Shown here one piece after another: positions 5,725 to 23,652 of a DNA stretch of 64,000 nucleotides. Location: positions 1 to 64,000 of the forward strand of contig JAEZRP010000006.1 in NCBI GenBank assembly GCA_023444095.1, read 5' to 3'. Within the stretch, counting starts at the first letter, position 1. Every line of letters starts with the position of its first letter. Source of the DNA: Bacillota bacterium. Lineage in GTDB: Bacteria > Bacillota > Clostridia > Christensenellales > Aristaeellaceae. A program made the translations under genes and the position numbers. Below the pieces are notes generated by a model. That model saw only the letters and a program-made list of their open reading frames with translations. It had not been told where the DNA came from and did not search any database.

Positions 5725-5989
5725 CTGCTCCCCTTCACCTTTATGATGATCGTGCCGCGTTTGAGCGACAGTATATATCATTCGCCGGGGGAGACAAATT
5801 TCCTGCATGTATCGATCAAAATACAGCAATTTATCAGTCATCGTCGCGTCGTCGCGTACCAATTATTCCCCGCACCCATGGTATATACCACGTGCCCGGT
5901 GCGAAACCTTTGTTTGTCGCGTTTTTTAACAAAATATAAACTGATTAATTCAAAACGGCAAACAATTTTCGCATTTTTGGCGCAAGCTG

Positions 5990-6017
5990 TTGATTTCGTC
6001 CGCATCCATGCTATAAT
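5990..6017 (+). promoter_or_regulatory. Sigma-70-type promoter (-35 TTGATT, 16-nt spacer, -10 TATAAT)
   Basis: TTGATTtcgtccgcatccatgcTATAAT lies ~35 nt upstream of the 6051 ATG. Confidence 0.5.
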
Positions 6018-6050
6018 CTACTTATTCTTTTGGAACGGCGAGGAGACGCG

Positions 6051-6695: not shown

Positions 6696-6697
6696 TA

Positions 6698-6727
6698 TTG
6701 ACACGACAGTTAAATATATGCTATAAT
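6698..6727 (+). promoter_or_regulatory. Near-consensus sigma-70 promoter (-35 TTGACA, 18-nt spacer, -10 TATAAT)
   Basis: TTGACAcgacagttaaatatatgcTATAAT lies 28 nt upstream of the 6756 start. The RBS is aagggtggagg. Confidence 0.65.
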
Positions 6728-6755
6728 TCCGTAGATCAAAGGGTGGAGGCGCAGC

Positions 6756-7875: not shown

Positions 7876-10134
7876 ATGGATGTGAAGGCCATCGTCAGCC
7901 AGATGACCCTGGAAGAGAAGGCGGGCATGTGCTCGGGCTCCGACATGTGGCGCCTGAAGGGCGTGGAGAGGCTCGGGATTCCCTCCGTCATGGTGACGGA
8001 CGGCCCGCACGGCCTGCGCAAGCAGTCGGGCGCGTCCGATCACCTTGGGATCAACGATTCGGTCGTCGCGGTGTGCTTCCCCACCGCCGCGTCCCTGGCG
8101 TCGACGTTTGACCGCGCACTGGTACGAAAGGTCGGCGAGGCGCTTGGCGACGCGTGCCAGGCGGAGGACGTCGCGGTGATCCTCGGCCCCGGCGCGAACA
8201 TCAAGAGAAGCCCGCTGTGCGGAAGGAACTTCGAATACTTCAGCGAGGACCCGTACCTGACGGGCGAGATGGCGAAGGCGCACATATCGGGCGTCCAATC
8301 GAAGAACGTCGGGACGAGCCTCAAACACTTCGCGGTCAACAATCAGGAGACCCGGCGCATGACGGTGGACGCGCGCCTCGACGAGCGGACGCTCCGGGAA
8401 ATCTATCTCGCGGGCTTCGAAAAGGCCGTCGTCGAGGCGAAGCCCTGGACGGTCATGTGCTCCTACAACAAGATCAACGGAACCTACGGCTGCGAGAACC
8501 CGCACACGCTCACGGAGATTCTGCGCGACGCGTGGGGCTTTGAAGGCTATGTCATGACCGATTGGGGCGCGATGAACGACAAGATCGCCTCCATTCAGGC
8601 GGGCCTCGAGCTGCAGATGCCGGGCGGAAACGCGTCGGTCGACCGGAAGCTGGCGGACGCCGTCCGGAGCGGCGAACTCGACGAGGCGATTCTCGACCGC
8701 GCATGCGAAACGATTCTCTCCATCACCATGCGCTACGCTGAGAACCGCAGGCCCGATACGAAGTTCGACCATGCGGCGCACCACGCGCTCGCGCGCAAGG
8801 TTGAGGCCGAAGGCTGCGTGCTCCTCAAAAACAGCGGCGCACTGCCTCTCTGTTATAACGCGAAGGTCGCGCTCATCGGAAAGTTTGCCGCCGAGCCCGT
8901 CTTCCAGGGCGGCGGCAGCTCGCACATCAATCCGTGGAAGGTGGAAACCGCGCTCGACGCATTCAAGGAGTTTGGCGGCCAGGTAACCTACGCGCAGGGT
9001 TATAGGACCGAAAAGGAAGAGGCCGATCTGGCGCTCCTCGACGAGGCGGCAAAGGCGGCTGCCGCGGCGGATATCGCGATCGTATTTGCCGGGATGCCAG
9101 CGGGCTTTGAGAGCGAGGGCTACGACCGAAAGCACCTGAACCTGCCGGCGTGCCAGGACCAGCTCATTTCCATCGTCGCGGACGTTCAGCCGAACACGGT
9201 CGTCGTGCTCCACAACTCGTCTGCCGTCGCGATGCCGTGGCTCCGGAAGGTCTCCGCGGTGATCGAAGCGTACCTCGGCGGCGAGGCGGTCGGCGGCGCG
9301 ATCTACGACGTTGTGACCGGAAGCGTCAATCCCTCCGGTAAGCTTGCGGAAACCTTCCCGAACCGGATCGAGGACACGCCCGCTTTCCTCAACTTCCCGG
9401 GCTACGACGACGTCGTCGAGTATCGCGAGGGCATCTATGTCGGCTACCGCTATTACGACGCGAAGAAGATGGACGTTCTGTTTCCCTTCGGCCACGGCCT
9501 GAGCTACACGACGTTCGCATATTCCAATCTTACGATCGACAGAGCCGAAATGACGGACGAGGAGGAAGCGACCGTCCGCTGCGAAATCACCAACACCGGC
9601 AAGGTGTTCGGTCAGGAGGTCGCGCAGCTCTACGTAACCCGAAAGACAGGCGGCGTGCCGCGCGCGGTGCGCGAGCTGAAGGGCTTTCAGAAGGTTGCGC
9701 TCGATCCAGGGGAGACGAAGGCGGTCTCGTTTACACTCGGAAGGCGCGCCTTCGCCTACTTTAACGCGGAGATGAACGACTGGTGCGTCGAGGAAGGCGT
9801 ATATGGCGTCGAGATCGGCGCTTCATCGCGCGCAATCAGACTCGAGATCGAATTGAAAGTTCGCCCCGTGAAGCCGCACTACAGGCCCTTCACGCTCAAC
9901 AGCACGCTCGGAGATCTCATGAAAAACCCGGTCGCCGCGCCCGTCGTCGAGGTGCTTCTGAAGGCCGCCTTCCCCATGCCCGAGGATGGCGCACCCGTGC
10001 TCGGCATGGAGGGCGGGCTCCTCGAGATGCTCGGCAGCGCGCCCCTGCGCGCCATGGTCGGCTTCTCGCAGGGCGCATTCTCTGAGGAGCAGGCGCAGGC
10101 GATGCTCGACGGGATCAATGCGGGACTGGGGTAG
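7876..10134 (+). CDS. Glycoside hydrolase family 3 beta-glucosidase-like (BglX type, with C-terminal FnIII-like domain)
   Basis: A 752-aa protein. The GH3 N-domain (...SLKHFAVNNQETRR..., MTDWGA) and the alpha/beta C-domain are recognisable. The RBS is aaaggagg. Confidence 0.85.
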   Translation: MDVKAIVSQMTLEEKAGMCSGSDMWRLKGVERLGIPSVMVTDGPHGLRKQSGASDHLGINDSVVAVCFPTAASLASTFDRALVRKVGEALGDACQAEDVAVILGPGANIKRSPLCGRNFEYFSEDPYLTGEMAKAHISGVQSKNVGTSLKHFAVNNQETRRMTVDARLDERTLREIYLAGFEKAVVEAKPWTVMCSYNKINGTYGCENPHTLTEILRDAWGFEGYVMTDWGAMNDKIASIQAGLELQMPGGNASVDRKLADAVRSGELDEAILDRACETILSITMRYAENRRPDTKFDHAAHHALARKVEAEGCVLLKNSGALPLCYNAKVALIGKFAAEPVFQGGGSSHINPWKVETALDAFKEFGGQVTYAQGYRTEKEEADLALLDEAAKAAAAADIAIVFAGMPAGFESEGYDRKHLNLPACQDQLISIVADVQPNTVVVLHNSSAVAMPWLRKVSAVIEAYLGGEAVGGAIYDVVTGSVNPSGKLAETFPNRIEDTPAFLNFPGYDDVVEYREGIYVGYRYYDAKKMDVLFPFGHGLSYTTFAYSNLTIDRAEMTDEEEATVRCEITNTGKVFGQEVAQLYVTRKTGGVPRAVRELKGFQKVALDPGETKAVSFTLGRRAFAYFNAEMNDWCVEEGVYGVEIGASSRAIRLEIELKVRPVKPHYRPFTLNSTLGDLMKNPVAAPVVEVLLKAAFPMPEDGAPVLGMEGGLLEMLGSAPLRAMVGFSQGAFSEEQAQAMLDGINAGLG

Positions 10135-10317: not shown

Positions 10318-11024
10318 TTATCTTCTTATCTCCGCGAGCAGCGCGCGAAAAGGCTTGATCGAGTATTCGTCCATGCCGAGCGTCTTTTCCGGGTGCCATT
10401 GGAGGCAGACGACGAATGGATCGCCCGCATACTCGAGCGCCTCGACGGCGCCGTCGCGGGCGCGCGCGGAGATGACGAGACCGGGCGCGACGCGGTCGGC
10501 GGACTGATGATGATAACTGTTGGTGCGGATGGAGGTCGCACCGAAGATCGTCGCCGTGCGCGAACCGGGGACGATGTCCACGTCGTGCGTGAACGGCGGA
10601 TCGTCCTTCTGCTGCTGATGATCGGTTCCGTAGACCTTCGGCACATGCTGGATGAGCGTGCCACCTAGCGCGACATTGACGACCTGGAGTCCGCGGCAGA
10701 TGCCGAGGATCGGCTTTTTGCGCGCGAACATCGCCTTCACGAGCGGGATTTCGAGCGCGTCGCGGTCCGGGAGCACGGGACCGAGCTCGGGCCACGGCAG
10801 CTCGCCGTAATTCTCCGGTGCCACGTCCTTTCCGCCGGTGAACACCATGCCATCCAGCTCATCCGCGAGCGCCTCGACGGCGTCGAGCGGAAAATCCACA
10901 TAATCGATGTATCTGGGCTCTCCGCCCGCCTCACGGACGCCGTCTAAGTAACCCTCCGGCACATACCTGCCGCTTCCGTCCGCGCGCTCGTAGGGGATGA
11001 CCCCAATGACCGGTCTTTTCATGT
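10318..11024 (-). CDS. Class-I glutamine amidotransferase-like / peptidase C26 (gamma-glutamyl-GABA hydrolase family)
   Basis: A 235-aa protein with ...ILGICRGLQVVNVALGG...CLQWHPE (Cys-His catalytic pair). The start is at MKRPVIGV with a gagggtgg RBS. Confidence 0.7.
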
Positions 11025-11036
11025 CCGCATCCACCC

Positions 11037-12362
11037 TCACATTTTCATTGGTTTTCCGCAGCTCAGCCTGCCCTCGGGACACCTTCCGTCCACGTAGCAG
11101 CTTGGGCCGAATACCCAGAAGATATCCTCGTCGTATTCCTTGAGCAAATCAAGCATCAGGCGCGCCACGCGCCGGATCTCCCACTGCGCGCGGTTACAGG
11201 TGCGCAGCTTGATAAAGTGCAAAAGTTCGCGTGCGTTCATCTCGAGCATGATGTCCGTCACGTGCCCGCTGAGCGCGAGATACGCCATATCGTGTGCCGG
11301 CGCGCCGAGGGTGATGAGCTGTTCCGCCAACTCCGCCTGGCCCGCGAACGCCGCCTCGAAGCGCGCGAGGAGCGCAGGGTCCTTCTTCACGCTTTCGGGA
11401 ACGACGTACTTTCCGTTCGCGAGCGCGTGCGCGGCGTCCGGCACGAGCAGCGAGAGCATCCGGTGGCGCGTGAAGTGCGTGACGCAGGCGAGAGATACGT
11501 TTTTCACCAAGAACTGCGCGGTCAGAAACTCAAGTTCGCGCGGGCGCGCGTCCTGAACGAGCGCCATCATGTTGCGCTCGGAGGCGTAATCCCCGTCCTC
11601 GGGCGCGAACCGGCCCGCGAACGCGATGGCGCGCGCGAGCGCCTTCTGCGGATCAGGCGTCGCGGCGACGAGCTCCGCGCTCCCCTTTGCCGCCCCGCCG
11701 CGCTTCCATTCCGTCGGGAATGGTCTCGCCGCGCACCGGGCGTACCGCGCGCGTTCGGCGGCGATCACGCCGGGATAGAGCAAATCGAACTGCGCCTCGA
11801 GCTGCGCGCCGAGGGCCGCGATCTCAGGTTGCGCCGCGCCCCGTCCGCACGTCATTTCGGAGATGACCGCGATGAGCGTGCGGGCGTTCAAAGTGACGTA
11901 GAAATTGCTCGAGAACGAGTAAGGCAGCACGAAGCGCGCGTCCTCGCGCGGCACGCCCGCCTCAATAAGATCGGCGTACAGCCGGAAAAGCGCCTCCGCC
12001 GACGAGACATACCTTTCCCGCGCCGCGTCCGGAAGGTCCTCCGGCACCAGATAGCCCGCGCCCGAAAAGTCCACGTACCGCCTGGATTTCACGATATAGG
12101 AGGCGAGCCTGTGCTCGATCATGAACTGCTCGACGAGCACGCTCACCCGGTCGAATGCGACCGAGAATGTCTGATGTTCCATCAGCGACTTATGCCCGGA
12201 CGCGAGCACCTTTTTAACGAGCCTCAAATCCTTCTGCGCGTCGGCCGGCCGGTCGAACAGCTCGAGCGCGGAACCCTCCGTGGTCGAGATGCGCGCGGCA
12301 CTCGCCACGACCCGGAGCGCGTCCCTGTTATCCAGTATGATTTTTGCCGTTCCTTCGTACAT
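11037..12362 (-). CDS. Tandem ThyX-like (flavin-dependent thymidylate synthase family) two-domain protein with a Cys-rich C-terminal tail
   Basis: The N-domain carries ...HKSLMEHQTFSVAFDRVSVLVEQFMIEHRLASYIVKSRRYV, which is ThyX-like with SxRY but has EHR in place of RHR. The C-domain has a second ...THFTRHRM... block. The C-terminus is CYVDGRCPEGRLSCGK. The start is at MYEGTAKI with an aaaggggag RBS. Confidence 0.55.
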   Translation of the reverse strand: MYEGTAKIILDNRDALRVVASAARISTTEGSALELFDRPADAQKDLRLVKKVLASGHKSLMEHQTFSVAFDRVSVLVEQFMIEHRLASYIVKSRRYVDFSGAGYLVPEDLPDAARERYVSSAEALFRLYADLIEAGVPREDARFVLPYSFSSNFYVTLNARTLIAVISEMTCGRGAAQPEIAALGAQLEAQFDLLYPGVIAAERARYARCAARPFPTEWKRGGAAKGSAELVAATPDPQKALARAIAFAGRFAPEDGDYASERNMMALVQDARPRELEFLTAQFLVKNVSLACVTHFTRHRMLSLLVPDAAHALANGKYVVPESVKKDPALLARFEAAFAGQAELAEQLITLGAPAHDMAYLALSGHVTDIMLEMNARELLHFIKLRTCNRAQWEIRRVARLMLDLLKEYDEDIFWVFGPSCYVDGRCPEGRLSCGKPMKM

Positions 12363-12582
12363 CTGGCACTCCCCTTTGTTCCGTCTATGATACAACAAAA
12401 CGCCCATGCGCGCAATCGGGAAAACGTTTCACACTTGCACTCTTCCCAATGCGCGCTGCCGTGCATGCGGCGTCCGCATTCGAATCCTGATCGTCCGGCA
12501 TGTGAATCAGAGGCGGACCTTCTGAACGTGTGCGAGGGGCGCGCGCCATCGTCCGTGCGTGCAGGATTTGTGTGGAATAGCC

Positions 12583-13410
12583 CTAGCGTTTCCCGATTTT
12601 TTCCAGATATCGGATCATCGGCATCACCCAGTCGGTCTGGATAATGTCAAAGCCTCTGCGCGCGAGCCAGCCCCAGCCGGCTTCATAGTCCCCCTGCGCA
12701 GAAATGTCGTCCGAGTGCCCCGACGCGAGGACCGCCCTGTGGTTATAGACGATGGCGTTTGCCCACACGAGAAGGCCCTTTTCGTGCATGTCCTCTATGT
12801 ACGCGGGGGACGCGATCGGCGCTTCATCTGTTTCAAACAGCGCCTCGACGCCCGCGTAGCGGAGCTTTCTTTTGAGAAGCGCGTCCGTGCATTCGTCCTT
12901 CTCGCGCGCAACGACCATGTACGGGATGTCCGGCGCGACCTCCTCCACGGCGTCGAAGCATCCGGGGTGAACGAACGTCTTGACGAGCGCCTGATCCTGC
13001 ATGCCGAATGCGCGCACCGCTTCCGCGATCTCGCGCGGCCAGTCCCAGAACTTGTCAATGTTGATGAAGCACCGGCCCCGGAATCGCTCCAGCACGTCCG
13101 TGAGGCGCGGCACGTGAAACTGCGTCGCGGTCCGATCCTGATTGACGAGATAGAGCATATCGACCTCGCGGCTCTCCATCTCGGAAATGAGGCGCGCCGA
13201 ATAGAGGTGCGCGCTCTCCATGCCGGGATGAAAGACGTACAAAACGCCGTCTGCGCTCCTCGCGACGTCGATTTCGATCATGTCCGCGCCCTGGGCGAGC
13301 GCAGCCTCGAACGCGGCCATCGAGTTGCAGGGGATGTTCCCGCCCGCAACGCCGCGATGGGCCGCGACGAGCACTCGGATCCTGCTCGCCTGAATCAGAT
13401 CATATTTCAT
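12583..13410 (-). CDS. Glycerophosphodiester phosphodiesterase (GDPD family)
   Basis: HRG...E.D motifs are present (VAAHRGVAGGNIPCNSMAAFEAALAQGADMIEIDV). The start is at MKYDL with a gaggagg RBS. Confidence 0.75.
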   Translation of the reverse strand: MKYDLIQASRIRVLVAAHRGVAGGNIPCNSMAAFEAALAQGADMIEIDVARSADGVLYVFHPGMESAHLYSARLISEMESREVDMLYLVNQDRTATQFHVPRLTDVLERFRGRCFINIDKFWDWPREIAEAVRAFGMQDQALVKTFVHPGCFDAVEEVAPDIPYMVVAREKDECTDALLKRKLRYAGVEALFETDEAPIASPAYIEDMHEKGLLVWANAIVYNHRAVLASGHSDDISAQGDYEAGWGWLARRGFDIIQTDWVMPMIRYLEKIGKR

Positions 13411-13575
13411 GTGATTCCTCCTCGCATTTTCCATTCTTTCCGCCCCGTCGCATCATCGTTCACCCTCCCGGTCGAATGTTGCGAACGTCACAAACAGCGC
13501 AAGCGGCAGCGCCATGTAGAGCGCAAACACATACCGGAATCCGTAATTGATCGGAACGGACGCCATCAGCGTCAA

Positions 13576-15252
13576 CTAGATGCCCGTGAGGGGCACAAAT
13601 ACAATCCACTTGCGTCGCTCCCGCGCGCTGACGGCGATCCCCATAAGAAGAAGCGTGATCAGAAACACGTTCCCCGCACCGAGCATCGACTTTTTGTACC
13701 CCTGATACCAGGCATCCATCCTCCGCTGCAGCCAATCCGGAAGGATCTGTACGTTTTCGATCCCCAGACCGATCGAATCCGGATTCGCAATATCCGTATA
13801 GTAGCCCTGGGCGTATGCGTGCTCGAAGCTGTCCCAGAAGACGCTCGTCAAAAGCGCGTACGCCTGAATGTAGCTCCCGAGGTTCTTCGGGAGCATCTCA
13901 GCCCATACCCGGAAGAACTCAGCCTTGTTTTGATTGAGAAAGGACCTGCTGAATTTTGCCTTCTGTTCCCATTTCAGCTTGTCAAACGACGTGGGGCTGT
14001 AGTGTTCCAGTATGACCTCGCGCGGAACCACGCGGTAGATGAACGCTTCCTGCTCGTCTGTGATCTCCCCGCCGTTTAACACCGTCATGCAGATCTGCTG
14101 CATGGGAACGGCGATCATCTCCGTAAACTGGGCCTCCCCCTTCACGACGTACCGCATGGCGAGGGCGTTTGATCCATACGGAAGGGCGAGCGTGAGAAAG
14201 GCGACCAAAAGCAATCGGATCCGGTAGCGTCGGACCGAAAACAGCAGAACGAACATCGTGAGCGCCATCACATAGAGTCCGTTATTGCGCAGAAGGGCAG
14301 CAACCGTGCCGAGCCCGACGAGCGCGGCAGAAAATTTCGGACTTTCAAGCTTTTCGCCGCGCGATACCGCGAGATCGCAGAAAAGCGGCAGGAGAAGCAC
14401 CACGGTCGCGCCGAACCAGCCGTCCTTGATTCCCGTCACGGCGATGTTCGCCATCAGCCGCGAGAATGCGAAATGCGCGCAGAACGCGGCGAGGAGGAAC
14501 GTTGGACAACCCTTTTTCGCGAGCCATCGGAGCGCCCAGGCCATTGAAAACGCGACATAACACATCTGTGCGAACGTGTAAAGCGCGTATCCCGCGTTCA
14601 TGTGGCCAAAGAGGCCGTTTCCCGCCATGACGAGACCATACAGGAGCTGGCAGTAGAAGAATGGGTGTTGCGTGCTCATCCCCACAGGGTCTTCGAGGAT
14701 CCAGACCGTGTCGCTGATGCATGTGCCGGGGAAGTAGGTGATCAAAAATCCGCTCCAGGCAAACAGAAACGCCGCGAGCGCGGTGAAAAACACCGCATTG
14801 GGCTTTGCCCTTCCGGCGTTCAAATAGCGCGCGAGCGCGACGTGATCCCTTTCCAGAAGCGAGGCAGCATAGAAGATGACAAGAAAAAAACACAGTGCGA
14901 CGGCGGCAAAATTGGCGACGTCGACGAGGCTGAATTGCGCGACGAGCCGCTGATTCCCGGCGCTCGGACCGTTCAGGTACGCGTACACCTTGGCGCCCAT
15001 CGCAAACGCGCCGCCAAATGCCGCGCCAAACAGCGCCGAAAGGACGACCCGGCTCCCTCGGGCGCGCAGGCGCGCGCCTTTCATGGACAGCGCTCCGCGC
15101 AGGGCGATGAGCGTCGCCCCGCCGATGAACGCCCGCCACCCGGCGGCGACGCCGTCGATGCTCCAAACGCGGATCATCAGCGCGGCCGTAACCGCGTGCG
15201 CGACGCCCCACAGGAGAACCGCGCGCGCGGTCATGCTCAGTCTTTTCCCCAT
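13576..15252 (-). CDS. Large polytopic membrane protein (>=10 predicted TM helices) with a C-terminal soluble domain; possible GT-C-like glycosyltransferase (unconfirmed)
   Basis: A 558-aa protein with many hydrophobic segments, a ~150-aa hydrophilic region (EHYSPTSFDKLKWEQK...) and a final TM. The start is at MGKRLS with an agggagg RBS. Confidence 0.4.
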   Translation of the reverse strand: MGKRLSMTARAVLLWGVAHAVTAALMIRVWSIDGVAAGWRAFIGGATLIALRGALSMKGARLRARGSRVVLSALFGAAFGGAFAMGAKVYAYLNGPSAGNQRLVAQFSLVDVANFAAVALCFFLVIFYAASLLERDHVALARYLNAGRAKPNAVFFTALAAFLFAWSGFLITYFPGTCISDTVWILEDPVGMSTQHPFFYCQLLYGLVMAGNGLFGHMNAGYALYTFAQMCYVAFSMAWALRWLAKKGCPTFLLAAFCAHFAFSRLMANIAVTGIKDGWFGATVVLLLPLFCDLAVSRGEKLESPKFSAALVGLGTVAALLRNNGLYVMALTMFVLLFSVRRYRIRLLLVAFLTLALPYGSNALAMRYVVKGEAQFTEMIAVPMQQICMTVLNGGEITDEQEAFIYRVVPREVILEHYSPTSFDKLKWEQKAKFSRSFLNQNKAEFFRVWAEMLPKNLGSYIQAYALLTSVFWDSFEHAYAQGYYTDIANPDSIGLGIENVQILPDWLQRRMDAWYQGYKKSMLGAGNVFLITLLLMGIAVSARERRKWIVFVPLTGI

Positions 15253-15283
15253 CGATTTCCTCCCTGCATGATTGCCCGCGCCG

Positions 15284-16108
15284 TCAGAACAGGGCCGCCG
15301 AAATCTCCGGCCACTTTTCAATGAGGTAAATCAGCAGCAGATGACCGGGATAGAAGGCGTAGAACACCCACTTGTTGAGCTTAAGGCCCGAGCGCATGGG
15401 GATGTAGATGAACGGGAGCGCCATGATCGCGAACATCTGGATGTAGAAGCTCACTTCGAATAAGGTATATCCGGAACCGTCGAGTCCCCAATAGATCATA
15501 TACGCCGCGACGAGCGGGAGCGAGATATACCAACGATTGATGAACAGGTACAGAAGCAGCATGAGGAAGACGCCCCGGATGCCGTAATCGAGGGCAGAGT
15601 TCATGAGGTATGTGAGGAGCAGGATCAGCGCCGTGATCCAGAGCCGCCGTTCGCGCACCGACCAGATGGCCACGATGCCCACCGCAAGCGAAAGAAGGAT
15701 GCTCGGATCCTTCCAGCTGTAGACGTAGAAATTGAAAATCGCACCGAAAGGATCGATTTTGAATGGGATCGCGGTCATGAGCGGATTTGTATGATGAAGC
15801 GCCAGCACATAGATCGGCTGTGCAATGAGCGCCAGAAGCACGATGCGCTGGAGATATCGCCCCATATTGCGCGTGTAGACGCAGCCAACCGCGATGGCGT
15901 AGGCGTAGATCGGAAATGCGATCCGACCGATGATCCGCATCACGGTATACTGTGTGAAAATAGCCGCGCCGAGATGGTCAACCAGCATCGTGAGCATGGC
16001 GACGACCTTGATGAGGTTGGTATCCTGATTGAGTCCGACTTCCGTGTGCCGGAACGGCCAGTTGCGGTCGAGCCAGCTTTCTTTCTGCTTTGCGGGCACT
16101 TCATTCAC
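15284..16108 (-). CDS. TraX-family membrane protein
   Basis: A 274-aa integral membrane protein; ...KVVAMLTMLVDHLGAAIF... is typical of the TraX family. Confidence 0.65.
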   Translation of the reverse strand: MNEVPAKQKESWLDRNWPFRHTEVGLNQDTNLIKVVAMLTMLVDHLGAAIFTQYTVMRIIGRIAFPIYAYAIAVGCVYTRNMGRYLQRIVLLALIAQPIYVLALHHTNPLMTAIPFKIDPFGAIFNFYVYSWKDPSILLSLAVGIVAIWSVRERRLWITALILLLTYLMNSALDYGIRGVFLMLLLYLFINRWYISLPLVAAYMIYWGLDGSGYTLFEVSFYIQMFAIMALPFIYIPMRSGLKLNKWVFYAFYPGHLLLIYLIEKWPEISAALF

Positions 16109-16758
16109 CCCTTGTATGCGATCAGGCGCTCCGCGTCCGCGCGGCTGATGTGCTTCTCGAGTCTTTGAACGATCATTTCGCGTGAATCCTCCGGTTCCTC
16201 GTCGTAGGCCGCCGTGCAGAGGGCGCCAAACCGCTCCTCCGCAGTCAGATAGACGGAAATCCCCCAGCCGTAAGGAACGCCGTGGCGGTCGCGCCGTCGG
16301 TCGAAGCCCGCGACGGTGATGTAGGTGCGCATCTGAAGCCGCGTCAGCGCGGCCTCGAAGCCCTTATCCCCGTACGCCTTGCGCAGCTCGTGCGAGAGCG
16401 AGACGCCGCCCTCGACGAGCGCGTACAGCCGTCGGTCGCGGCTCAATACGAGCCCGTCCTCCGCACGCGCCTCAAAGTCATAGCCCTCTCGCCGCATGTT
16501 GCAGAAGCGGGGATAGAGGTCGCGCCCGATCAGCCCCGCCTTTCCGGCGAGGACCTTCGCATAGGCGACCTCGCCCGAGGCGGCGAGCTGTTCGCGCCAC
16601 TCCCACGGCCCCTCCACGCCCTCCTTGAACCAGAACTCCTCGGGCGTCATCTCCTGGATGGAGAAGCCCGGAACCTCCGAGCGAAACAGCGGGACGAGGC
16701 CGACCTCGTCGATCAGATCCCGGACGTCCTTCGCGGAGCGCAGCGCGCGCGGACTCAT
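16105..16758 (-). CDS. Hypothetical protein (~217 aa), translationally coupled between the ROK kinase and TraX
   Basis: Both the start and the stop overlap their neighbours by 4 nt (ATGA). Composition is protein-like. I could not assign a family. Confidence 0.5.
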   Translation of the reverse strand: MSPRALRSAKDVRDLIDEVGLVPLFRSEVPGFSIQEMTPEEFWFKEGVEGPWEWREQLAASGEVAYAKVLAGKAGLIGRDLYPRFCNMRREGYDFEARAEDGLVLSRDRRLYALVEGGVSLSHELRKAYGDKGFEAALTRLQMRTYITVAGFDRRRDRHGVPYGWGISVYLTAEERFGALCTAAYDEEPEDSREMIVQRLEKHISRADAERLIAYKG

Positions 16759-17630
16759 TCGAGCGCTTCCTTCGCAATCAGCAGGGAACCCACCGCGCCC
16801 GCGTTGTCGCCGAGGCCGGGATGGACGATGAAGGAGTCGATGTCCTTCGTGACCGCCGGGTGCGCCACATAGCCGCCGAGCTTTTCGAGTGTCTTTTTGC
16901 GCGTGCGCTCGATGAGGTTCGGCTGGTGCATGACGCCGCCGCCCAGGATGATGCGCTTCGGCGAAAGCATGCAGATTGCGCTCACGCACATCTGCGCGAG
17001 GTAGTCCGACTCAATCTCCCATGCCACGTGGTCGTCCGGCAGCGTGCGCGAGGGAACACCCCAGCGGCGGTTGAGCGACTCTCCACACGCCAGGCCCTCG
17101 AGGCAGCCGTCGTGGTACGGGCAGAATCCGTGCGGCGCCGGGTCCATGGGGTGCGGGTTCAAAAGGATGTGTCCCATCTCGGGATGCACGAGTCCGTGGT
17201 GCAGCCTTCCGCCCGCGTAGAGCCCGCCGCCGATGCCGGTTCCGATGGTGAAGTAGACCACGGTGTCGAGCCCTTTCCCCGCGCCCAGAATCGCCTCTCC
17301 CAGCGCCGCCGCGTTGACGTCGGTGTCGATGCCCACGGGCACGTGGAGCGCGTCTGCGAGCGCCTTGCGAAGCGGGTAATCCCTCCATTCGAGCTTCGGC
17401 GTCGTAGTAATCTTTCCGAACGCCGGATCGCCTTCTTCGAGGTTCAGCGGGCCGAAGCTTCCGACGCCCAGCGCGTCGATCGCCCTGTCCTTGAAATAAT
17501 TGGCCACCTCGCGCATCGTCTCGTTCGGTTCCCGCGTCGGGAAGCTCGCCCGCTCGAACAGATTGCCGTGTTCGTCGCCAAGCGCGCACACCATCTTGGT
17601 GCCGCCGGCCTCCAGTGCGCCCAGTCTCAT
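16755..17630 (-). CDS. ROK-family sugar kinase (fructokinase/glucokinase-like)
   Basis: MRLGALEAGGTKMVCALGD...; the typical ROK Zn site (HG...CxCGxxGCxE-like: CPYHDGCLEGLACG) is present. The start has an acggaggg RBS. Confidence 0.8.
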   Translation of the reverse strand: MRLGALEAGGTKMVCALGDEHGNLFERASFPTREPNETMREVANYFKDRAIDALGVGSFGPLNLEEGDPAFGKITTTPKLEWRDYPLRKALADALHVPVGIDTDVNAAALGEAILGAGKGLDTVVYFTIGTGIGGGLYAGGRLHHGLVHPEMGHILLNPHPMDPAPHGFCPYHDGCLEGLACGESLNRRWGVPSRTLPDDHVAWEIESDYLAQMCVSAICMLSPKRIILGGGVMHQPNLIERTRKKTLEKLGGYVAHPAVTKDIDSFIVHPGLGDNAGAVGSLLIAKEALE

Positions 17631-17653
17631 CAGTATCCCTCCGTTTTCGTGAC

Positions 17654-18709
17654 TTAAGCGTGCGATTCGACCGCTTCCGCCATCGCGGCGCGCGCCGCCT
17701 CCATCTCCGAGACGAGCTTGAACTGCGTGCGGCAGCGGTCGAGATTCTGGTTTTCGCGATGGATCTTGAAGTATGCGTCTCCCTGTATGTGGTCCGTGAG
17801 AAACCGGACGCCGCACTCATAGGTCATGAGCCGCGCGCCGTCCGGGAGCGTGGCGATCTCGTTCTCCGTCAGGCCATCCCTGCACGCGGCAAGGTAGCCG
17901 CGCGCATAGGCGTCAAAGAGCGGCAAGGAGAAACGAACCTTCGAAAGATCGCGCTCGTCCTCGGCGGCGGTCGTCGCGCCGAAGCGGATCGAGTCGCCAA
18001 AGTCGTTGCCTGCGAGGCCGGGCATCACGGTGTCGAGGTCAATGACGCACAGCGGCTCACGCGTCCCGGCGTCAAGAAGCACGTTGTTGAGCTTCGTATC
18101 GTTGTGCGTGACGCGCAAGGGGAGTTCGCCCCGTAGAAGCATGCCTGTCATGAGGGCGGCGTCCGCCTCGCGCGCGAGCGCGAAATCGATCTCCCTCTGA
18201 ACGTCTTTCGCGCGACCGAGCGGATCGGACGCGACCGCTTCCTTCAGGAGCCGCACCCGGTTGGGCGTATCGTGAAAGCGCGGGATCGTCTCGTGGAGGG
18301 TCTTTGCCGGGAAGCCGGAGAGCCGCCTCTGGAAGTCTCCGAACGCCCGCGCGCTCATCTCGAAATCAGCCGCCGACCCTGCCGACTCCAGGCAGATGCT
18401 GTCCTCGACGAAGTCGTAGACGCGGAAGTAATTCCCGCCGAATACCGCGTAGAGCGCGCCATCCGCCGTCTTTATGGGCGTGAGTACGTGACGCGGGTCG
18501 GGATCGTGCGCCGCAAGGAAGGATGTGACCGCGCCGACGTTTTCCATGAGCGCCGGCACGTCCTGGAAGATCAAGTGGTTGATTCGCTGGAGAATGTATC
18601 GCCTCTCAGTCGTCGCAATCAGGTACGTCTCGTTGATGTGACCGTTGCCGTAGGGGCGCATTTCGACAACTTCCCCCGCGAGGCGGAACAGGTCTGCTAT
18701 TTCGCGCAT
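17654..18709 (-). CDS. Anomeric sugar kinase, APH-fold (NahK/AmgK-like), paralog 2
   Basis: RVTHNDTKLNNVLLDAGT...CVIDLDTVMPGLAGNDFGDSIRF; roughly 50-65% local identity to paralog 1. The start is at MREIADL with a ggaggga RBS. Confidence 0.7.
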   Translation of the reverse strand: MREIADLFRLAGEVVEMRPYGNGHINETYLIATTERRYILQRINHLIFQDVPALMENVGAVTSFLAAHDPDPRHVLTPIKTADGALYAVFGGNYFRVYDFVEDSICLESAGSAADFEMSARAFGDFQRRLSGFPAKTLHETIPRFHDTPNRVRLLKEAVASDPLGRAKDVQREIDFALAREADAALMTGMLLRGELPLRVTHNDTKLNNVLLDAGTREPLCVIDLDTVMPGLAGNDFGDSIRFGATTAAEDERDLSKVRFSLPLFDAYARGYLAACRDGLTENEIATLPDGARLMTYECGVRFLTDHIQGDAYFKIHRENQNLDRCRTQFKLVSEMEAARAAMAEAVESHA

Positions 18710-19626
18710 GTGTCCCTCCACAGTTCCTCGGGGTATTTTCCGGCGCGCCTCATTTCGGCGATCGCGGAAACGACCTTTTCGAGATCCTCCTTGTACGTCA
18801 TGCCGTACCACTTTTCGTTTGTATCCAGAACCCTGACCGTCGCTTTCTCCTCCTCAATCAGGAGGTTCGGGACGAGCGGCAGAAAATATTCGCACTTCAG
18901 GGCGTTTTGGGGCAGATATTGTTTCAAAAAGGTCGAGAACCGGGATTCGATCTCGTCCATCATGGCGCGTCCGAAGCACCACATGTTCATAGAAACGAAG
19001 GTACCCGCCGGGATAAATGTAAACGTGCTTCCTCCGTCCTCGGAATACCTTGCGCCGCCCTCCGCCGGGAGGATGTAAGTGCGCTCCGTCACGCCGGTCA
19101 GGTTCCCTGCGCCATCGACCGCGCACACGCCGCGCGCGACAGAGCCGTTTTCCGTGAGCGTGTTCTCGATGCGGTAGCCGATCATGGCGTGCTCGCTTTC
19201 CGGGCGCCGGGGGGCCAGGAATTCGTACGCCCTCTGGAACGCGGACAGGCCATAGAAGTCGTCGGCATTGATGACGCAGAAGGAAGAATCGACCGCGTCC
19301 TTCGCGCACAGCGTCGCGTGGGCGGTTCCCCAGGGCTTCGTCCGGCCCGCGGGGATCGAAAAGCCCTCCGGGAGCATGTCGAGCTCCTGATACGCATACT
19401 CGACGGGAAAGACCTTCGCGATCCGTCCGCCGATTGATTCCTTGAACTGTTCCGAAAAGGAGCGTTTGATGACGATAACGACTTTTGAAAAACCGGCGCG
19501 CATAGCGTCGAAGATCGAATAATCCATGATGACGTGACCAAAGTCGTCCACAGGGGTGATCTGCTTGTCGCCGCCGAACCGGCTGCCCATCCCGGCGGCC
19601 AGCACGACGAGCACGGGCCTATTCAT
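18697..19626 (-). CDS. Sugar-1-phosphate nucleotidyltransferase (GlmU/RmlA/MurU-like NTP-transferase fold) with C-terminal extension
   Basis: The N-terminus MNRPVLVVLAAGMGSRFGGDKQITPV matches the (L)xxGxGxR(F) signature of sugar nucleotidyltransferases. Its 3' end overlaps the downstream kinase start by 13 nt. Confidence 0.65.
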   Translation of the reverse strand: MNRPVLVVLAAGMGSRFGGDKQITPVDDFGHVIMDYSIFDAMRAGFSKVVIVIKRSFSEQFKESIGGRIAKVFPVEYAYQELDMLPEGFSIPAGRTKPWGTAHATLCAKDAVDSSFCVINADDFYGLSAFQRAYEFLAPRRPESEHAMIGYRIENTLTENGSVARGVCAVDGAGNLTGVTERTYILPAEGGARYSEDGGSTFTFIPAGTFVSMNMWCFGRAMMDEIESRFSTFLKQYLPQNALKCEYFLPLVPNLLIEEEKATVRVLDTNEKWYGMTYKEDLEKVVSAIAEMRRAGKYPEELWRDTCAK

Positions 19627-19719
19627 TCCATCACCTTCTTACACGTGATAAATCGATTATACCCGCGCGGAAATGTAAAGTCAATGCGCGTTATTCATTG
19701 AAAATACATACTTTCCGGG

Positions 19720-19748
19720 TTGAAAACGTTGTGCTTCCATTATATAAT
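19720..19748 (+). promoter_or_regulatory. Sigma-70 promoter (-35 TTGAAA, 17-nt spacer, -10 TATAAT)
   Basis: TTGAAAacgttgtgcttccattaTATAAT lies 27 nt upstream of the 19775 ATG. The RBS is ggaggg. Confidence 0.6.
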
Positions 19749-19774
19749 GCCCATATGAAATTGGAGGGATTACG

Positions 19775-20110
19775 ATGGCCAAACCGACGACAACCATGGG
19801 CACGGACAAGCGGATGATTCTCGTTCTGATCGCGTGCGGCGCGCTTCTTCTCGCGCTCATCTGCGTATCCGCGTTCGCCTACCAGTGGCACGAAGAGAAT
19901 GTCGACCTCAAAAAGAAGAATCAGACGCTCAAGGCCCTCACGGACCAGTCGACGCTCGACTCCATCACCCAGGAGCTTTCCACGGTGCAGCAGGACCTGT
20001 TCGCCGCGCAGAGCGAGAACGAGGAGTACGAGCGGCGGATCAAGGAGTACGAGTCGATTCTGACCGAAAACGGGCTGATGCCGACGCAAGCCCCAACAGA
20101 GGGCCCATGA
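19775..20110 (+). CDS. Small membrane-anchored coiled-coil protein (hypothetical)
   Basis: A 111-aa protein with one N-terminal TM (ILVLIACGALLLALICVSAFAY) followed by a coiled-coil. Confidence 0.55.
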   Translation: MAKPTTTMGTDKRMILVLIACGALLLALICVSAFAYQWHEENVDLKKKNQTLKALTDQSTLDSITQELSTVQQDLFAAQSENEEYERRIKEYESILTENGLMPTQAPTEGP

Positions 20111-20526
20111 TGACGCCGTATCTGACCTTTGCCGGCGATTGCCGCGCCGCGCTCACGCTTTACGCCGAGGCGTTTCAAAGCGAGATCCGCATGGAACGGA
20201 CGTACGGGGACTACGTGCCGGAAGGCGTCGCGCACCCGCCGAAGGACCTGTGCGACTGGATTCTGCACGCAGAGATGGAAATCTCGGGCACGAACGTCTG
20301 GCTCGCGGACGAGATCCTTGCGCCCGTGTCGCCCGGTTCCATGGTGAAGCTCGTCGCGACGGCGCCGAGCGCGGCGGAGGGATGGCGCGTCTTTGACGCC
20401 CTCCTCCCAGGCGGACGCGTCACGCTCCCGCCAACGGACACGTTCTACTCGACGTTCCACGCGGGGCTCGTCGACCGATTCGGCGTCCACTGGAACATCG
20501 TCGCCGAGGAAGCACCCGCGCCGTGA
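20108..20526 (+). CDS. VOC-family protein (PhnB/glyoxalase-like)
   Basis: MMTPYLTFAGDCRAALTLYAEAF... is typical of PhnB-like VOC proteins. The ATG overlaps the upstream stop (ATGA). Confidence 0.65.
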
Positions 20527-20551
20527 TCAAGGATGCGAAGGCATAAGATTG

Positions 20552-20594
20552 GGCTGTTGCAGATTTCCGTTTCCTGCAACAGCCCTTTTTTTAT
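20552..20594 (+). terminator. Rho-independent terminator
   Basis: gggctgttgcag...ctgcaacagccc is followed by TTTTTTTA. Confidence 0.75.
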
Positions 20595-20750
20595 GTCTCA
20601 CCGTACCAAAATCCATGACACGGCACATCTGTCAGGCAGGCGTCGCGCTCGCAAAATCGGCCGTCGGAGGGTTGACCTCTGGACGGCCGACGCACATCTG
20701 CCGGAGTTCTGGCTTATCAGAGGATCGCCGACCTTAGCGGGCCCTCTCTC

Positions 20751-21884
20751 TCAGTACCCCGCGCTCTCCTCATGGATGATCGAGAGCATGTCCGGAATCG
20801 GGGTTGCGAAGTGCTGCGGGCAGGCGGAGACGCACGCGCCGCAGGCGATGCACTTCAACTCCGGCACCTGCCTCTTGTACCGCTCGAAGTAGCCCTTGAG
20901 GTTGTCAAACATGTGGGCCTGATCGTAGCCGCGCAGGATGTGCGGGATGTTGATCTCCATCGGGCAGGGCATGCAGTATTCGCAGCCCGTGCAGCCAACC
21001 TTGATGCGCGCCTCATAGGCCTCGCGAACCTTGGTGAGCATGGCGCGCTCATCGTCCGAGAGGCAGTAAGCGTCGCTTTCGGAGAAGATGCGCAGATTGT
21101 CGTTCAGTTGCTCCATGTTGCTCATGCCGGAAAGGATGGTCATGAACTCCGGCTTGTCGATGAGCCACTTGAACGCCCACTCGGCGGGGCTTAATTCCTT
21201 GCCCGTGGAGCCGTAGAGCTTCATGATGGATTCCGGAACGCTTTTCGTGAGGCCGCCGCCGCGCACGGGTTCCATGGCAATCACGCCGATCCCCCGCTTC
21301 GCCGCCTCGCGCACGCCGTCCATGGTCGCCTGGCTGAACTCGTCAAGGACGTTCATCTGTACCTGGCAGACCTTCCAGTCGTATGCATTCAGGATTTCTA
21401 GGAAGGCGTCCTTCTCGTCGTGGAAGGAGAAGCCGGGATAGAGAACCTTACCCTTTTTTACCATCTCGTCGAGGAATCTGGCAAAACCGATCTCGACGAG
21501 CTTTTTGAAGCGATCCCCGTCGAGCGCGTGGAGAAGGTACACGTCCACGTGATCGGTCCCGAGCTTCTGAAGCTGCTCGTCGAGGAGCACCTCGAAGTCC
21601 TCGTACTTCTCGACCTTCCAAACAGGCGATTTCGTCGCGAGGATCACCTTTTCGCGGTATCCGTCCTGAAGCGCCCTGCCGACGAGCACCTCGCTCATGC
21701 CGCCGTGGTAGGGGTATGCCGTGTCGATGTAATTGATCCCGCTGTCGATGGCGTGGCGAACCATTTTGATCGCCTCGGGCATGTCGATGGGATGGTTTTC
21801 CTCCGGAAGCGTGGGAAGGCGCATGCAGCCTATGCCGAGCGCGCTGACCATAACTTCCGTTCCGGGCATTTTGCGGTAGTTCAT
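20751..21884 (-). CDS. Aldo/keto reductase fused to a C-terminal 4Fe-4S ferredoxin domain
   Basis: An AKR TIM barrel (IDTAYPYHGG) is followed by CTGCEYCMPCP...CIACGACVSACP. Confidence 0.8.
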   Translation of the reverse strand: MNYRKMPGTEVMVSALGIGCMRLPTLPEENHPIDMPEAIKMVRHAIDSGINYIDTAYPYHGGMSEVLVGRALQDGYREKVILATKSPVWKVEKYEDFEVLLDEQLQKLGTDHVDVYLLHALDGDRFKKLVEIGFARFLDEMVKKGKVLYPGFSFHDEKDAFLEILNAYDWKVCQVQMNVLDEFSQATMDGVREAAKRGIGVIAMEPVRGGGLTKSVPESIMKLYGSTGKELSPAEWAFKWLIDKPEFMTILSGMSNMEQLNDNLRIFSESDAYCLSDDERAMLTKVREAYEARIKVGCTGCEYCMPCPMEINIPHILRGYDQAHMFDNLKGYFERYKRQVPELKCIACGACVSACPQHFATPIPDMLSIIHEESAGY

Positions 21885-21885
21885 T

Positions 21886-23652
21886 TTACTCCTCCATTTC
21901 CATGTCGTCGCCGGAATCCGAGCCAGCGGATTGGGGAGCGAGCGGAAGCGTCACGAGAAACTCCGTCCCCTCGCCCAGCTTCGAATGCACCTCGATCTCG
22001 CCGTGCATCGTGCGGACGATGTGCTTGACGATCGCGAGGCCGAGGCCCGTCCCGCCCATCGAGCGGGAACGGCCCTTATCTACGCGATAGAAGCGCTCGA
22101 ACATGCGCGGCAGGTGCTCCTCCGCGATACCAATGCCCGTGTCCGCGACGGACAGATTCGCTTCCGTGGCGTTCTTGAATACCTGCACCGTCACGGAACC
22201 GCCGGGCTTATTGTACTTGATGCCGTTTTCAACGAGGTTGATGAGCATCTGCTCCACATGGTCCTTGTTGCCGATGACGTAGACCGGGTCCGCGTTCATG
22301 TGGCAGGAGAGTCGGACTTCCTTCTCCCCGGCGTGGATCGCGAGCATCTCGGTCACGCCGAAGGCCACCTTGTCGAGCCGGATGCGCTCCTTCGGCGCCT
22401 CGTCCATGCCTGACTCGAGCTTTGAAATCGACAGGATATCATTGATGAGCCGCGTGAGGCGCTCGGTTTCGAGCATGATGATGTTGAGAAACTTCCTCGC
22501 CATCTCCGGCTTCTCGATCGCGCCGTCAAGGAGCGTCTCCACGAAGCCACGGATCGAGGTGAGCGGCGTCTTGAGCTCGTGCGAGACATTCGCCGCGAAG
22601 TCCGTGCGCACCTGCTCAAGCCTGCGGAGCTCGGTAATATCCTCCACCATGGCAAGCGCGCCCACGACCTTCCCATCCTTGCGCATGGGCGATACGTAGA
22701 GCCGAAGCGGCCTGTGCCCGCGCCCGATGGCGGTGCGAGCCGCAACCTCGTTGGTGTAGACGCCGCCTTGAAGCATGGCGTCCGAGAGCACCTGATCGAG
22801 CCGCACGTCCCGTGAAGCGTCGTTGATGTGCATGCCCTGCGCGGACCCCGTGATGCCGAGAAGCTGCTTGGCGACCGGGGTCACGAGGATGACGCGCAGC
22901 TTGTCGTCCACCGCGATGATGCCGTTTTGCATCTGGTTCATGACGACTGAGAGCGCCTGATTGCGGCTCCTCTGATTAAAGATTCGCTCGTCGATGCGCG
23001 AGAGGATGGCGTTATACTCGGCGGTCGCGTCTTTCCCGAAGCCGTCCGCGCGCGTCAGGCGCACGTCGAAGCGGCCGTCCGAATACGAATCGAGCACATC
23101 CATGATCCGCTCGATCGCGCGGCTGCGCCGGGCATTCAATAGGATGAGTGCGGTGAAAAACGAGAGCGCGATCACCAGAAAGATGCAAACATAAACCGCA
23201 GGTCCGCTCGCGCCGACCGACTGCCAGAAGCCCTCCCGCGCGACTGAGACCCGGAGGAACGAACCGTCCTCCAGAACTCCGATCGCGTACAGGATCGATT
23301 CGCCGTCCGATCCCGTCCTTTTGTAGACGCCCGATCTCCCCTCGCGCGCCTGTGCGATGTCTTGCTGATCGAGGGGCGCGGCCACCGCGTCAGAAGCGTA
23401 GACCGCGTCGCCCTTTCCGTTATAGACGCCCAGCGCGAGCCCCTTTTTGCGCAGATACTGGGTGAGCGCAGAAAAGCCCTCCGCATCCTTTCCGGAGGGC
23501 GCTGTCCCGGTGACGAGCCTGAGCGCCAGTTCTACGTCATCCGAAAGCCTCTCATTGCGCTCCTCAACAATTGCGAGACAGCTGAGCACGACGAGCAGAA
23601 CAAGCGCAAGCAATGTCGAGAGGGTTGCGGCGAGCGCAACCCTGCTTCTCAC
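21886..23652 (-). CDS. Sensor histidine kinase (2 TM, extracytoplasmic sensor, HAMP-PAS-HisKA-HATPase; PhoR/ResE-like)
   Basis: H-box SHELKTPLTSI, N and G boxes (NLVENGIKY, GTGLGLAIVK). The start overlaps the RR stop by 4 nt. Confidence 0.85.
   Translation of the reverse strand: MRSRVALAATLSTLLALVLLVVLSCLAIVEERNERLSDDVELALRLVTGTAPSGKDAEGFSALTQYLRKKGLALGVYNGKGDAVYASDAVAAPLDQQDIAQAREGRSGVYKRTGSDGESILYAIGVLEDGSFLRVSVAREGFWQSVGASGPAVYVCIFLVIALSFFTALILLNARRSRAIERIMDVLDSYSDGRFDVRLTRADGFGKDATAEYNAILSRIDERIFNQRSRNQALSVVMNQMQNGIIAVDDKLRVILVTPVAKQLLGITGSAQGMHINDASRDVRLDQVLSDAMLQGGVYTNEVAARTAIGRGHRPLRLYVSPMRKDGKVVGALAMVEDITELRRLEQVRTDFAANVSHELKTPLTSIRGFVETLLDGAIEKPEMARKFLNIIMLETERLTRLINDILSISKLESGMDEAPKERIRLDKVAFGVTEMLAIHAGEKEVRLSCHMNADPVYVIGNKDHVEQMLINLVENGIKYNKPGGSVTVQVFKNATEANLSVADTGIGIAEEHLPRMFERFYRVDKGRSRSMGGTGLGLAIVKHIVRTMHGEIEVHSKLGEGTEFLVTLPLAPQSAGSDSGDDMEMEE

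Follow-up and report, generated by a model that had tools for sequence, protein, structure and literature searches.

A tandem ThyX gene

The window analysed here is a stretch of 64,000 nucleotides (positions 1 to 64,000, forward strand, of contig JAEZRP010000006.1, assembly GCA_023444095.1) from a Bacillota bacterium placed in the Aristaeellaceae, order Christensenellales, and the subject of this work is a gene on its minus strand, at 11037..12362, encoding a protein of 441 amino acids plus stop in which two domains of the ThyX family follow each other on a single chain. The longest open reading frame (ORF) around this tandem thyX gene extends over 11037..12407 of the minus strand, with its TGA stop at 11037..11039, and the ATG at 12362 corresponds to Met16 of that frame. 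This ATG was preferred over the longer ORF because a Shine-Dalgarno-like sequence, AAAGGGGAG, can be read at 12369..12377 on the minus strand, 6 nt before it, and because most homologues are about 441 amino acids long; the protein then begins with MYEGTAKI. The same two observations support the gene limits given by a first-pass annotation of this DNA, which were correct. The reading frame is uninterrupted, and nothing above chance was found among Rfam elements or terminators flanking the gene. Two antisense ORFs on the plus strand, 11217..12644 and 12559..14079 (475 and 506 amino acids), overlap the thyX gene and its GDPD-family neighbour, and look like chance open frames of a sequence with 60–64% GC rather than genes.

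As a whole, the protein scores 239.9 bits against the Thy1 profile PF02511 (cutoff 24.8), with two matches, and 175.5 bits against the thyX equivalog profile TIGR02170 (cutoff 87.9). The two-domain architecture that had been proposed was borne out when the halves were scored separately on PF02511, since each one matches the profile nearly end to end: the N-terminal domain (residues 12–193, 11784..12329, minus strand, as for all further features of this gene) reaches 132.7 bits over profile positions 6–186 of 191, and the C-terminal domain (residues 230–409, 11136..11675) reaches 111.6 bits over positions 1–187 of 191. Between the two Pfam matches lies a poorly conserved linker, residues ~200–228 (11679..11765), modelled with a predicted local distance difference test (pLDDT) score of 86–97. 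The two halves share 26% identity (BLASTP, E = 1e-7), and the duplication must therefore be old.

The single-chain AlphaFold2 model is confident, with a pLDDT of 91.6 and a predicted template modelling (pTM) score of 0.89, the latter value suggesting that the two domains are packed in a fixed arrangement. With Foldseek, the model matched the ThyX chains of Thermotoga maritima, the virus PBCV-1 and Corynebacterium glutamicum, as well as PolB, all with a probability of 1.00 and with a target-normalised TM score of about 0.7 (~0.72) per half. Every match covers one half of the model, and among the Protein Data Bank (PDB) structures searched in this way no tandem ThyX was found, only single-domain chains. 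The best PDB sequence match of the tandem protein is T. maritima ThyX (TM0449; PDB 1kq4, 1o26, 4gt9), with E = 7e-16, an enzyme which shares the fold of each half. Whereas the T. maritima enzyme is a single domain of 220 amino acids forming a homotetramer with four identical sites, the tandem protein carries two diverged domains on one chain, and all the catalytic residues of one T. maritima site have counterparts in its two domains taken together.

Active-site residues of the two domains

In the ThyX enzymes of Mycobacterium tuberculosis and Helicobacter pylori, three subunits contribute to each of the four sites (PMC6514825). The phosphates and the ribityl chain of flavin adenine dinucleotide (FAD) are bound by the Arg-His-Arg (RHR) motif of subunit A together with Ser71 and Arg190 of subunit B, while deoxyuridine monophosphate (dUMP) has as its ligands Arg95 and Arg199 from subunit A together with Arg87, Ser105 and Arg107 from subunit C, with Tyr108 of C acting as a lid (PMC6514825). 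The M. tuberculosis numbering was confirmed by alignment, Arg95 and Arg199 corresponding to R78 and R174 of T. maritima ThyX, Ser105, Arg107 and Tyr108 to its S88, R90 and Y91, and Arg190 to its R165. The equivalences with the T. maritima enzyme given below are taken from sequence alignment, the chain numbering of entry 1kq4 being the native numbering plus 12. Conservation was assessed in a close set made up of the query and its 120 best homologues from a word-indexed search (53–99% identity), as well as in more divergent tandem representatives.

The N-terminal domain holds a canonical G-H-x-S..E-H motif (SGHKSLMEH, residues 55–63, 12174..12200), the contribution of a subunit B to the FAD site, whose counterparts are His53 of T. 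maritima ThyX and His69/Ser71 of the M. tuberculosis enzyme. Among the tandem representatives, H57 is present in 92/92, Ser or Thr at position 59 in 92/92 and H63 in 91/92. The ThyX motif of this domain is degenerate: in IEHRLASYIVKSRRYVD (residues 82–98, 12069..12119), E83 stands in place of the first arginine of RHR and is followed by H84 and R85, so that E83/H84/R85 occupy the positions of T. maritima R78/H79/R80, and S93, R95 and Y96, aligned to S88, R90 and Y91 in 1kq4, are intact. This is what the first-pass annotation had described, and E83 proved to be invariant. In fact, E83, R85, K92, S93, R94, R95, Y96 and R143 are found in all 121 sequences of the close set, the consensus of which reads I-E-[F/H/A]-R-L-A-S-Y-T-V-K-S-R-R-Y-V-D. 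Further along, PREDARFVLP (residues 138–147, 11922..11951) provides R143, the equivalent of T. maritima Arg147, within an invariant stretch of E140, D141, A142, R143 and F144.

The last element of the N-terminal domain to be considered is NARTLIAVISEMTCGRGAAQPEI (residues 159–181, 11820..11888), where R161, equivalent to T. maritima R165, is kept in 121/121 sequences and where the arginine corresponding to T. maritima Arg174 has been lost, its position being occupied by M170 (Met in 115 sequences, Leu in 6). The BLASTP comparison of the halves sets EMTCGR of the N-terminal domain against LRTCNR of the C-terminal one, in agreement with the helix boundaries of the AlphaFold2 model. A three-way MAFFT alignment places the Arg174 position at G185 instead, although M170 agrees better with the helix boundaries of the model; under either alignment, the Arg174-type arginine is missing from this domain.

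The C-terminal domain shows the complementary pattern. Where the N-terminal domain reads EHRLASYIVKSRRY at the ThyX motif, the C-terminal domain reads RHRMLSLLVPDAAH, without SxRY. Its THFTRHRMLS (residues 295–304, 11451..11480) carries an intact RHR, namely R299, H300 and R301, invariant in 121/121 sequences, with no Ser-x-Arg-Tyr after it, the following positions 305–312 being variable and hydrophobic; the previous description of this half, with RHR kept and the downstream motif lacking, is confirmed throughout the close set. The G-H-x-S..E-H motif is the degenerate one here, since in DARPRELEF (residues 271–279, 11526..11552) the His has become R273, at the position of T. maritima H53 and of H57 in the N-terminal domain, and the Ser has become R275. 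This segment is invariant in the close homologues, and in the wider family R275 is retained in 77/92 and R273 in 46/92. In PAHDMAYLALSGH (residues 355–367, 11262..11300), the position of T. maritima Arg147 corresponds to the variable A360, with loss of the arginine, followed by an invariant Y361; the register of A360 was derived from the comparison of PREDARFVLP with PAHDMAYLAL. R378 is the counterpart of T. maritima R165. Finally, LRTCNRAQWEIR (residues 386–397, 11172..11207) contains R387, equivalent to T. maritima Arg174, the first of four conserved cysteines, C389, and R391 at the position of T. maritima His178. Aligned to residues 173–184 of 1kq4, this element has R387, C389, R391, A392, Q393, W394, E395 and I396 invariant in 121/121.

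When these residues are sorted by the subunit role that they play in the solved enzymes, the C-terminal domain is seen to keep exactly the role-A set, R299-H300-R301 plus R387, and the N-terminal domain exactly the role-C set, S93, R95 and Y96, plus the role-B set (the invariant G56-H57-x-S59...E62-H63, and R161), which in the C-terminal domain is replaced by A-R273-P-R275-E-L-E. The classical RHRxxxxxxxS(xRY) signature is not found in either domain alone, and is recovered when the RHR of the C-terminal domain and the SxRY of the N-terminal domain are taken together. Pooling the two domains, the sequence comparison indicates that the whole ligand set of one site (T. maritima R78, H79, R80, S88, R90, Y91, R147, R165, R174 and H53) is present and invariant. 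Had both halves carried a complete motif, the split would have been a misreading; however, RHRx7SxRY occurs within one domain in 0/120 tandem proteins, compared with 120/120 single-domain relatives.

Moreover, the complementary split extends well beyond the close homologues. Over 3,100 relatives came out of the word-indexed search. Of the best 120, almost all are tandem proteins of 433–490 amino acids, and a few are named 'FAD-dependent thymidylate synthase' and come from Christensenellales or Clostridia metagenome-assembled genomes (MAGs). A HMMER search of 1.84 billion cluster representatives yielded 185 representatives at E <= 1e-30, and the split was also present in 89 further full-length tandem representatives with 31–53% identity, which brings the number of tandem homologues to about 210 altogether. 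Of these 89 divergent representatives, a single one has Arg at the first position of the N-domain RHR; S93 and R95 are practically invariant throughout, and the RHR of the C-terminal domain is invariant.

Such breadth bears on whether the protein could be a dead pseudo-enzyme, or an artefact of assembly or annotation in which two adjacent thyX genes were read through, as might be thought from the lack of a complete ThyX motif in each domain taken singly. This is highly improbable, since the frame is uninterrupted, the architecture is found in more than 3,000 database proteins and in at least 567 species from independent assemblies, all the residues for one composite site are invariant and the AlphaFold2 model is confident.

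The explanation that we consider likely, on the evidence of these aligned residues, is that the product of the gene is a true flavin-dependent thymidylate synthase, fused and subfunctionalised, whose active site is made up from complementary halves. The pseudo-dimeric enzyme that the first-pass annotation had put forward as one of two options is thus well supported by the sequence comparison, in which the C-terminal domain retains the elements of subunit A and the N-terminal domain those of subunits B and C. The reaction would be the usual one, in which dUMP, methylenetetrahydrofolate and a reductant yield deoxythymidine monophosphate and tetrahydrofolate. An ancestral single-domain ThyX with four cysteines would have been duplicated and fused, after which the two copies would have lost complementary parts of the active site. 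Acting as subunit A, the C-terminal domain would hold the FAD phosphates and touch dUMP through R299-H300-R301, with R387 as the Arg174-type dUMP ligand; the N-terminal domain would provide, as subunit C, the dUMP loop and lid, S93-x-R95-Y96, together with R143, and, as subunit B, the residues H57, S59 and R161 facing the flavin phosphates.

In a tetramer of 222 symmetry, each subunit would play role A in one site, role B in another and role C in a third, and two tandem chains should pair as a dimer of pseudo-dimers and take on the shape of this tetramer, the usual one for ThyX. Since each tandem domain holds part of the residue set, four domains would be expected to make no more than two complete sites. 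Two complete composite sites would then combine role A from a C-terminal domain, role C from an N-terminal domain and role B from the N-terminal domain of the partner chain. All the lost positions would fall in the two remaining, degenerate sites, to which role A would bring E83 and M170, role B would bring R273 and R275, and role C would bring A360 and the absence of SxRY. It is this self-consistent sorting of residues by subunit role that speaks most strongly for a dimer of pseudo-dimers with two live sites.

What the data show directly is the domain architecture, the residue pattern with its conservation, the size and taxonomy of the family and the gene context; we infer from them the oligomer, the number of live sites, the domain filling role B, metal binding and the enzyme activity itself. 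Several points weigh against the proposed enzyme. Placing role B on the N-terminal domain, like the dimer of pseudo-dimers itself, relies on symmetry reasoning and on one review (PMC6514825) of two structures; that review contains no statement on the subunit supplying the residue equivalent to R143 (T. maritima Arg147), which we inferred ourselves. The phosphate ligand Arg87 of M. tuberculosis ThyX (Arg74 in T. maritima) lacks a counterpart in either domain, and K92 and R94 may substitute for it. Covariation between E83 and R273/R275, examined as a test of a salt bridge in the dead site, gave no clear signal, and no biochemical data for any member of the tandem family were found in the literature. 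Finally, thyA, folA and a second thyX were looked for without success in the window and in ~0.85 Mb of fetched flanking sequence, which represent a small part of each genome.

Four invariant cysteines

The first-pass annotation had pointed to a Cys-rich tail, and this is indeed present: the protein ends in GPSCYVDGRCPEGRLSCGKPMKM (residues 419–441, 11040..11108), within which the Cys tail proper, GPSCYVDGRCPEGRLSCGKP (residues 419–438, 11049..11108), contains C422, C428 and C435. The description was incomplete, since a fourth invariant cysteine, C389 in LRTCNRAQWEIR, belongs with these three. C422, C428, P429, E430, G431, C435 and G436 are invariant in 121/121 sequences, and C389 likewise. The context of C389, two residues after R387, is L-R-T-C-x-R-A-Q-W-E-I-R, and that of the tail is G-P-S-C-x3-G-x-C-P-E-G-x2-S-C-G-x-P; in the model, the successive 10-residue blocks of the tail have pLDDT values of 92, 88 and 76. 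The cysteines are kept in 86/89 of the divergent tandem representatives, the exceptions appearing truncated or altered at the C terminus. In the N-terminal domain, C172, the equivalent of C389, is not conserved, the tandem protein having retained the cysteines only in the domain which keeps RHR and the Arg174-type arginine.

The tail is not particular to the two-domain protein, since the same four cysteines are found in single-domain ThyX relatives of about 230 amino acids with a complete motif (120/120, these being the closest relatives of one such protein). This large single-domain class (P0242, P0236, P0258, P0265 and P0275–P0393, mostly from MAGs labelled Micrarchaeota and Bathyarchaeia) comprises the nearest single-domain relatives of the C-terminal domain and shares LRxCxRAQWEIR and GPxC...CPEGK..CG with the tandem protein. 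Its members differ from it in being 230–235 amino acids long, with a complete RHRx7SxRY in 120/120, and are presumably ordinary homotetramers; their best match is M. tuberculosis ThyX (1e-28), and no characterised member was found. Since these relatives share the four cysteines, the latter must predate the fusion, and the tandem protein descends from a four-Cys ThyX class. The solved ThyX enzymes, by comparison, do not have them: T. maritima ThyX has Asp176 at the position of C389 and lacks the Cys tail, and in M. tuberculosis ThyX the Cys positions are occupied by Ser and Thr. This enzyme and that of H. pylori (PDB 2af6, 3gwc, 3n3y), which rank with T. maritima ThyX as the nearest characterised proteins, also differ from the tandem protein in being homotetramers of complete subunits. 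None of the solved ThyX structures contains these four cysteines.

Four invariant cysteines in a cytoplasmic enzyme suggest a metal site, and they probably form a single one on the domain carrying RHR, for which zinc and an iron-sulfur cluster are not separable by sequence. A tentative possibility is that the enzyme is the same thymidylate synthase and that the cysteines hold a redox-active iron-sulfur cluster, which would pass electrons from reduced ferredoxin or flavodoxin to FAD and make the enzyme independent of NAD(P)H. Such a cluster would be in line with the invariance of the four residues across bacteria and archaea, with a spacing (C-x32-C-x5-C-x6-C) that lacks a CxxC knuckle and has Cys-Pro at the third cysteine, with the location of C389 just two residues away from the active-site arginine R387, and with the fact that the tandem protein keeps its cysteines solely in the domain responsible for binding the FAD phosphates. 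Furthermore, all labelled carriers are MAGs of Clostridia, Micrarchaeota or Bathyarchaeia, which are anaerobic or low-oxygen lineages. Nevertheless, the type of cluster is unreadable from sequence and a structural zinc fits four cysteines equally well; in addition, no literature report of a metal in ThyX was found, and the solved ThyX enzymes work without these cysteines. More speculative, and in our opinion doubtful, is the wider proposal that an iron-sulfur cluster beside the flavin would define a large unrecognised class of ThyX, reduced by low-potential ferredoxin or flavodoxin instead of NAD(P)H, with single-domain members in archaea and tandem members in gut Clostridia. This same proposal would have the dead sites of the tandem enzyme repurposed, as a structural plug or as a regulatory pocket with E83, R273, R275 and Y361 as its conserved signature.

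Genomic neighbourhood, distribution and meaning

A gene for a class-I glutamine-amidotransferase-like protein of the Peptidase_C26 family (234 amino acids, 10318..11022, minus strand; 204 bits against PF07722) lies 14 nt downstream of the tandem thyX gene. Its score against PuuD is 97 bits, well below the cutoff of 266. A C26 gene is found directly downstream of thyX and on the same strand in 29 of the ~75 loci with room for it, in diverse genomes, for instance at 11337-12053 in locus L001, 9366-10106 in L002 and 9334-10050 in L004, and is probably an operon partner of tandem thyX. The C26 family includes folate gamma-glutamyl hydrolases, and a folate-related role for this gene is possible.

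On the other side, nrdD, encoding the anaerobic ribonucleotide reductase, is located directly upstream and in divergent orientation, with gaps of ~235–560 nt, in ~20 of 86 loci (L002, where it occupies 5421-7745, L009, L012, L018, L024, L030, L039, L043, L045 and others), and the intergenic region shared by nrdD and thyX could hold a common regulator site. In 13 other loci of the 86, nrdR lies ~5.4 kb upstream (within 6 kb), and altogether tandem thyX is beside nrdD or near nrdR in 36/86 loci. Other loci place it with frr-uppS-cdsA-dxr-ispG-polC or with recX/holA. A neighbourhood of nrdD/nrdR and housekeeping genes therefore fits an enzyme of deoxynucleoside triphosphate (dNTP) synthesis, and not a sugar or envelope function.

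The first-pass annotation had placed the gene in a sugar/envelope cluster, which is true of this window, where the neighbours are a GH3 beta-glucosidase (7876..10134, plus strand), a GDPD-family gene (12583..13434, minus strand), a DUF6020 membrane protein and TraX. The association is incidental, since GH3, GDPD, DUF6020 and TraX are not conserved beside the gene elsewhere, except for GDPD and TraX in the closest relatives, and a functional link to such a cluster was rejected for this reason. The window, compared over ~15284..24350 with positions 1-9824 of L001, is syntenic with this 88%-identical relative, the shared order being response regulator, histidine kinase, aldo-keto reductase with a ferredoxin domain, TraX, GDPD, thyX and C26. 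It differs from L001 by an extra DUF6020 membrane-protein gene (13576..15321, minus strand) and, downstream, by the GH3 beta-glucosidase, where L001 has frr-uppS-cdsA-dxr.

The tandem gene was found in at least 567 GTDB species, one genome per species being scanned. Among the matches listed, the carriers include Christensenellales, Pullichristensenella, Aristaeellaceae, Oscillospiraceae and Acutalibacteraceae, together with MAGs named after Ruminococcus, Faecalibacterium or Eubacterium, and the closest genome matches have 87% ('Bacillota bacterium') and 71% (Christensenellales) identity. In a distant tandem subgroup (P0196, P0199, P0207, P0210, P0213, P0217, P0224, from a 'Bacilli bacterium' MAG, P0234, P0238, P0239, P0244 and P0247), S-R-R-E replaces S-R-R-Y, the lid Tyr having become Glu, and Lys replaces R391, substitutions which hint at an altered chemistry or substrate handling. 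A singleton of 232 amino acids, P0222, consists of a single domain that joins an N-type IEFR...SGRY, with the first Arg lost, to a C-type HRCCNRAQWEIQ and the Cys tail, as might result from a deletion between the halves or from faulty assembly. Stand-alone halves are also present in the databases, N-like (P0225, P0252) and C-like (P0251, P0254, P0256, P0260, P0262). Their interpretation as a two-gene heteromeric ThyX was set aside, as most of them look frameshifted or truncated and the one contig fetched for them (L087) is just 1.4 kb long.

These genomic data also bear on the second option of the first-pass annotation, a ThyX-derived protein with a different nucleotide-modifying function, for example a C5-methylase of uridine or deoxycytidine monophosphate (UMP or dCMP) like PolB, or a hydroxymethylase, in place of the thymidylate synthase of the cell. 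A change of substrate within this fold is exemplified by PolB of Streptomyces cacaoi, a UMP/dUMP C5-methylase of polyoxin biosynthesis (PDB 4p5a), a ThyX-fold flavoenzyme and ThyX homologue of altered specificity which is among both the structural and the sequence matches of the tandem protein. In place of SxRY, the dUMP loop has SRRY together with the added invariant K92 and R94, the distant subgroup has Glu for the lid Tyr, and the entry for C. glutamicum ThyX (3ge9) is titled 'not required for thymidylate biosynthesis', all of which would suit another substrate. PolB, however, is a single domain encoded in an antibiotic gene cluster and a weaker match than bona fide ThyX (E = 2.3e-10, against 7e-16 for T. 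maritima ThyX); the thyX equivalog cutoff is passed twofold, the gene occurs across those 567 or more species with one match per fetched locus, and its neighbours are nrdD/nrdR, frr-uppS-cdsA-dxr-polC or holA/recX, not biosynthetic clusters. The tandem protein is neither closer to PolB than to ThyX nor located in a nucleoside-antibiotic cluster. A different function has therefore no positive support and is unlikely, with all the dUMP and FAD ligands of one composite site invariant and nrdD or nrdR nearby in 36/86 loci.

Many bacteria make thymidylate only through ThyX, an enzyme which humans lack and which is being pursued as an antibiotic target. In a very large group of anaerobes of the gut and rumen (Christensenellales, Oscillospiraceae and relatives), the tandem form seems to be the usual kind of ThyX, and annotation pipelines label it merely as 'FAD-dependent thymidylate synthase'. 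The first-pass annotation had allowed that the protein might be a routine match to long ThyX enzymes of demonstrated activity; it does belong to a very large, automatically annotated family, but no demonstrated activity or solved structure for that family was found. Nor did we find literature on tandem ThyX, on its complementary motif split or on the four-Cys site, although an earlier mention is possible.

As a probable composite thymidylate synthase, the tandem ThyX represents a natural experiment confirming the three-subunit active site, since its residues are sorted by subunit role, with one copy of each, and it predicts half the usual number of sites and of FAD molecules per domain. Moreover, the four-Cys site may be relevant to the way in which strict anaerobes reduce their ThyX, and the recurrent gamma-glutamyl-hydrolase-like C26 gene, together with the pairing with nrdD, offers leads on the handling of folate and dNTPs in these organisms.

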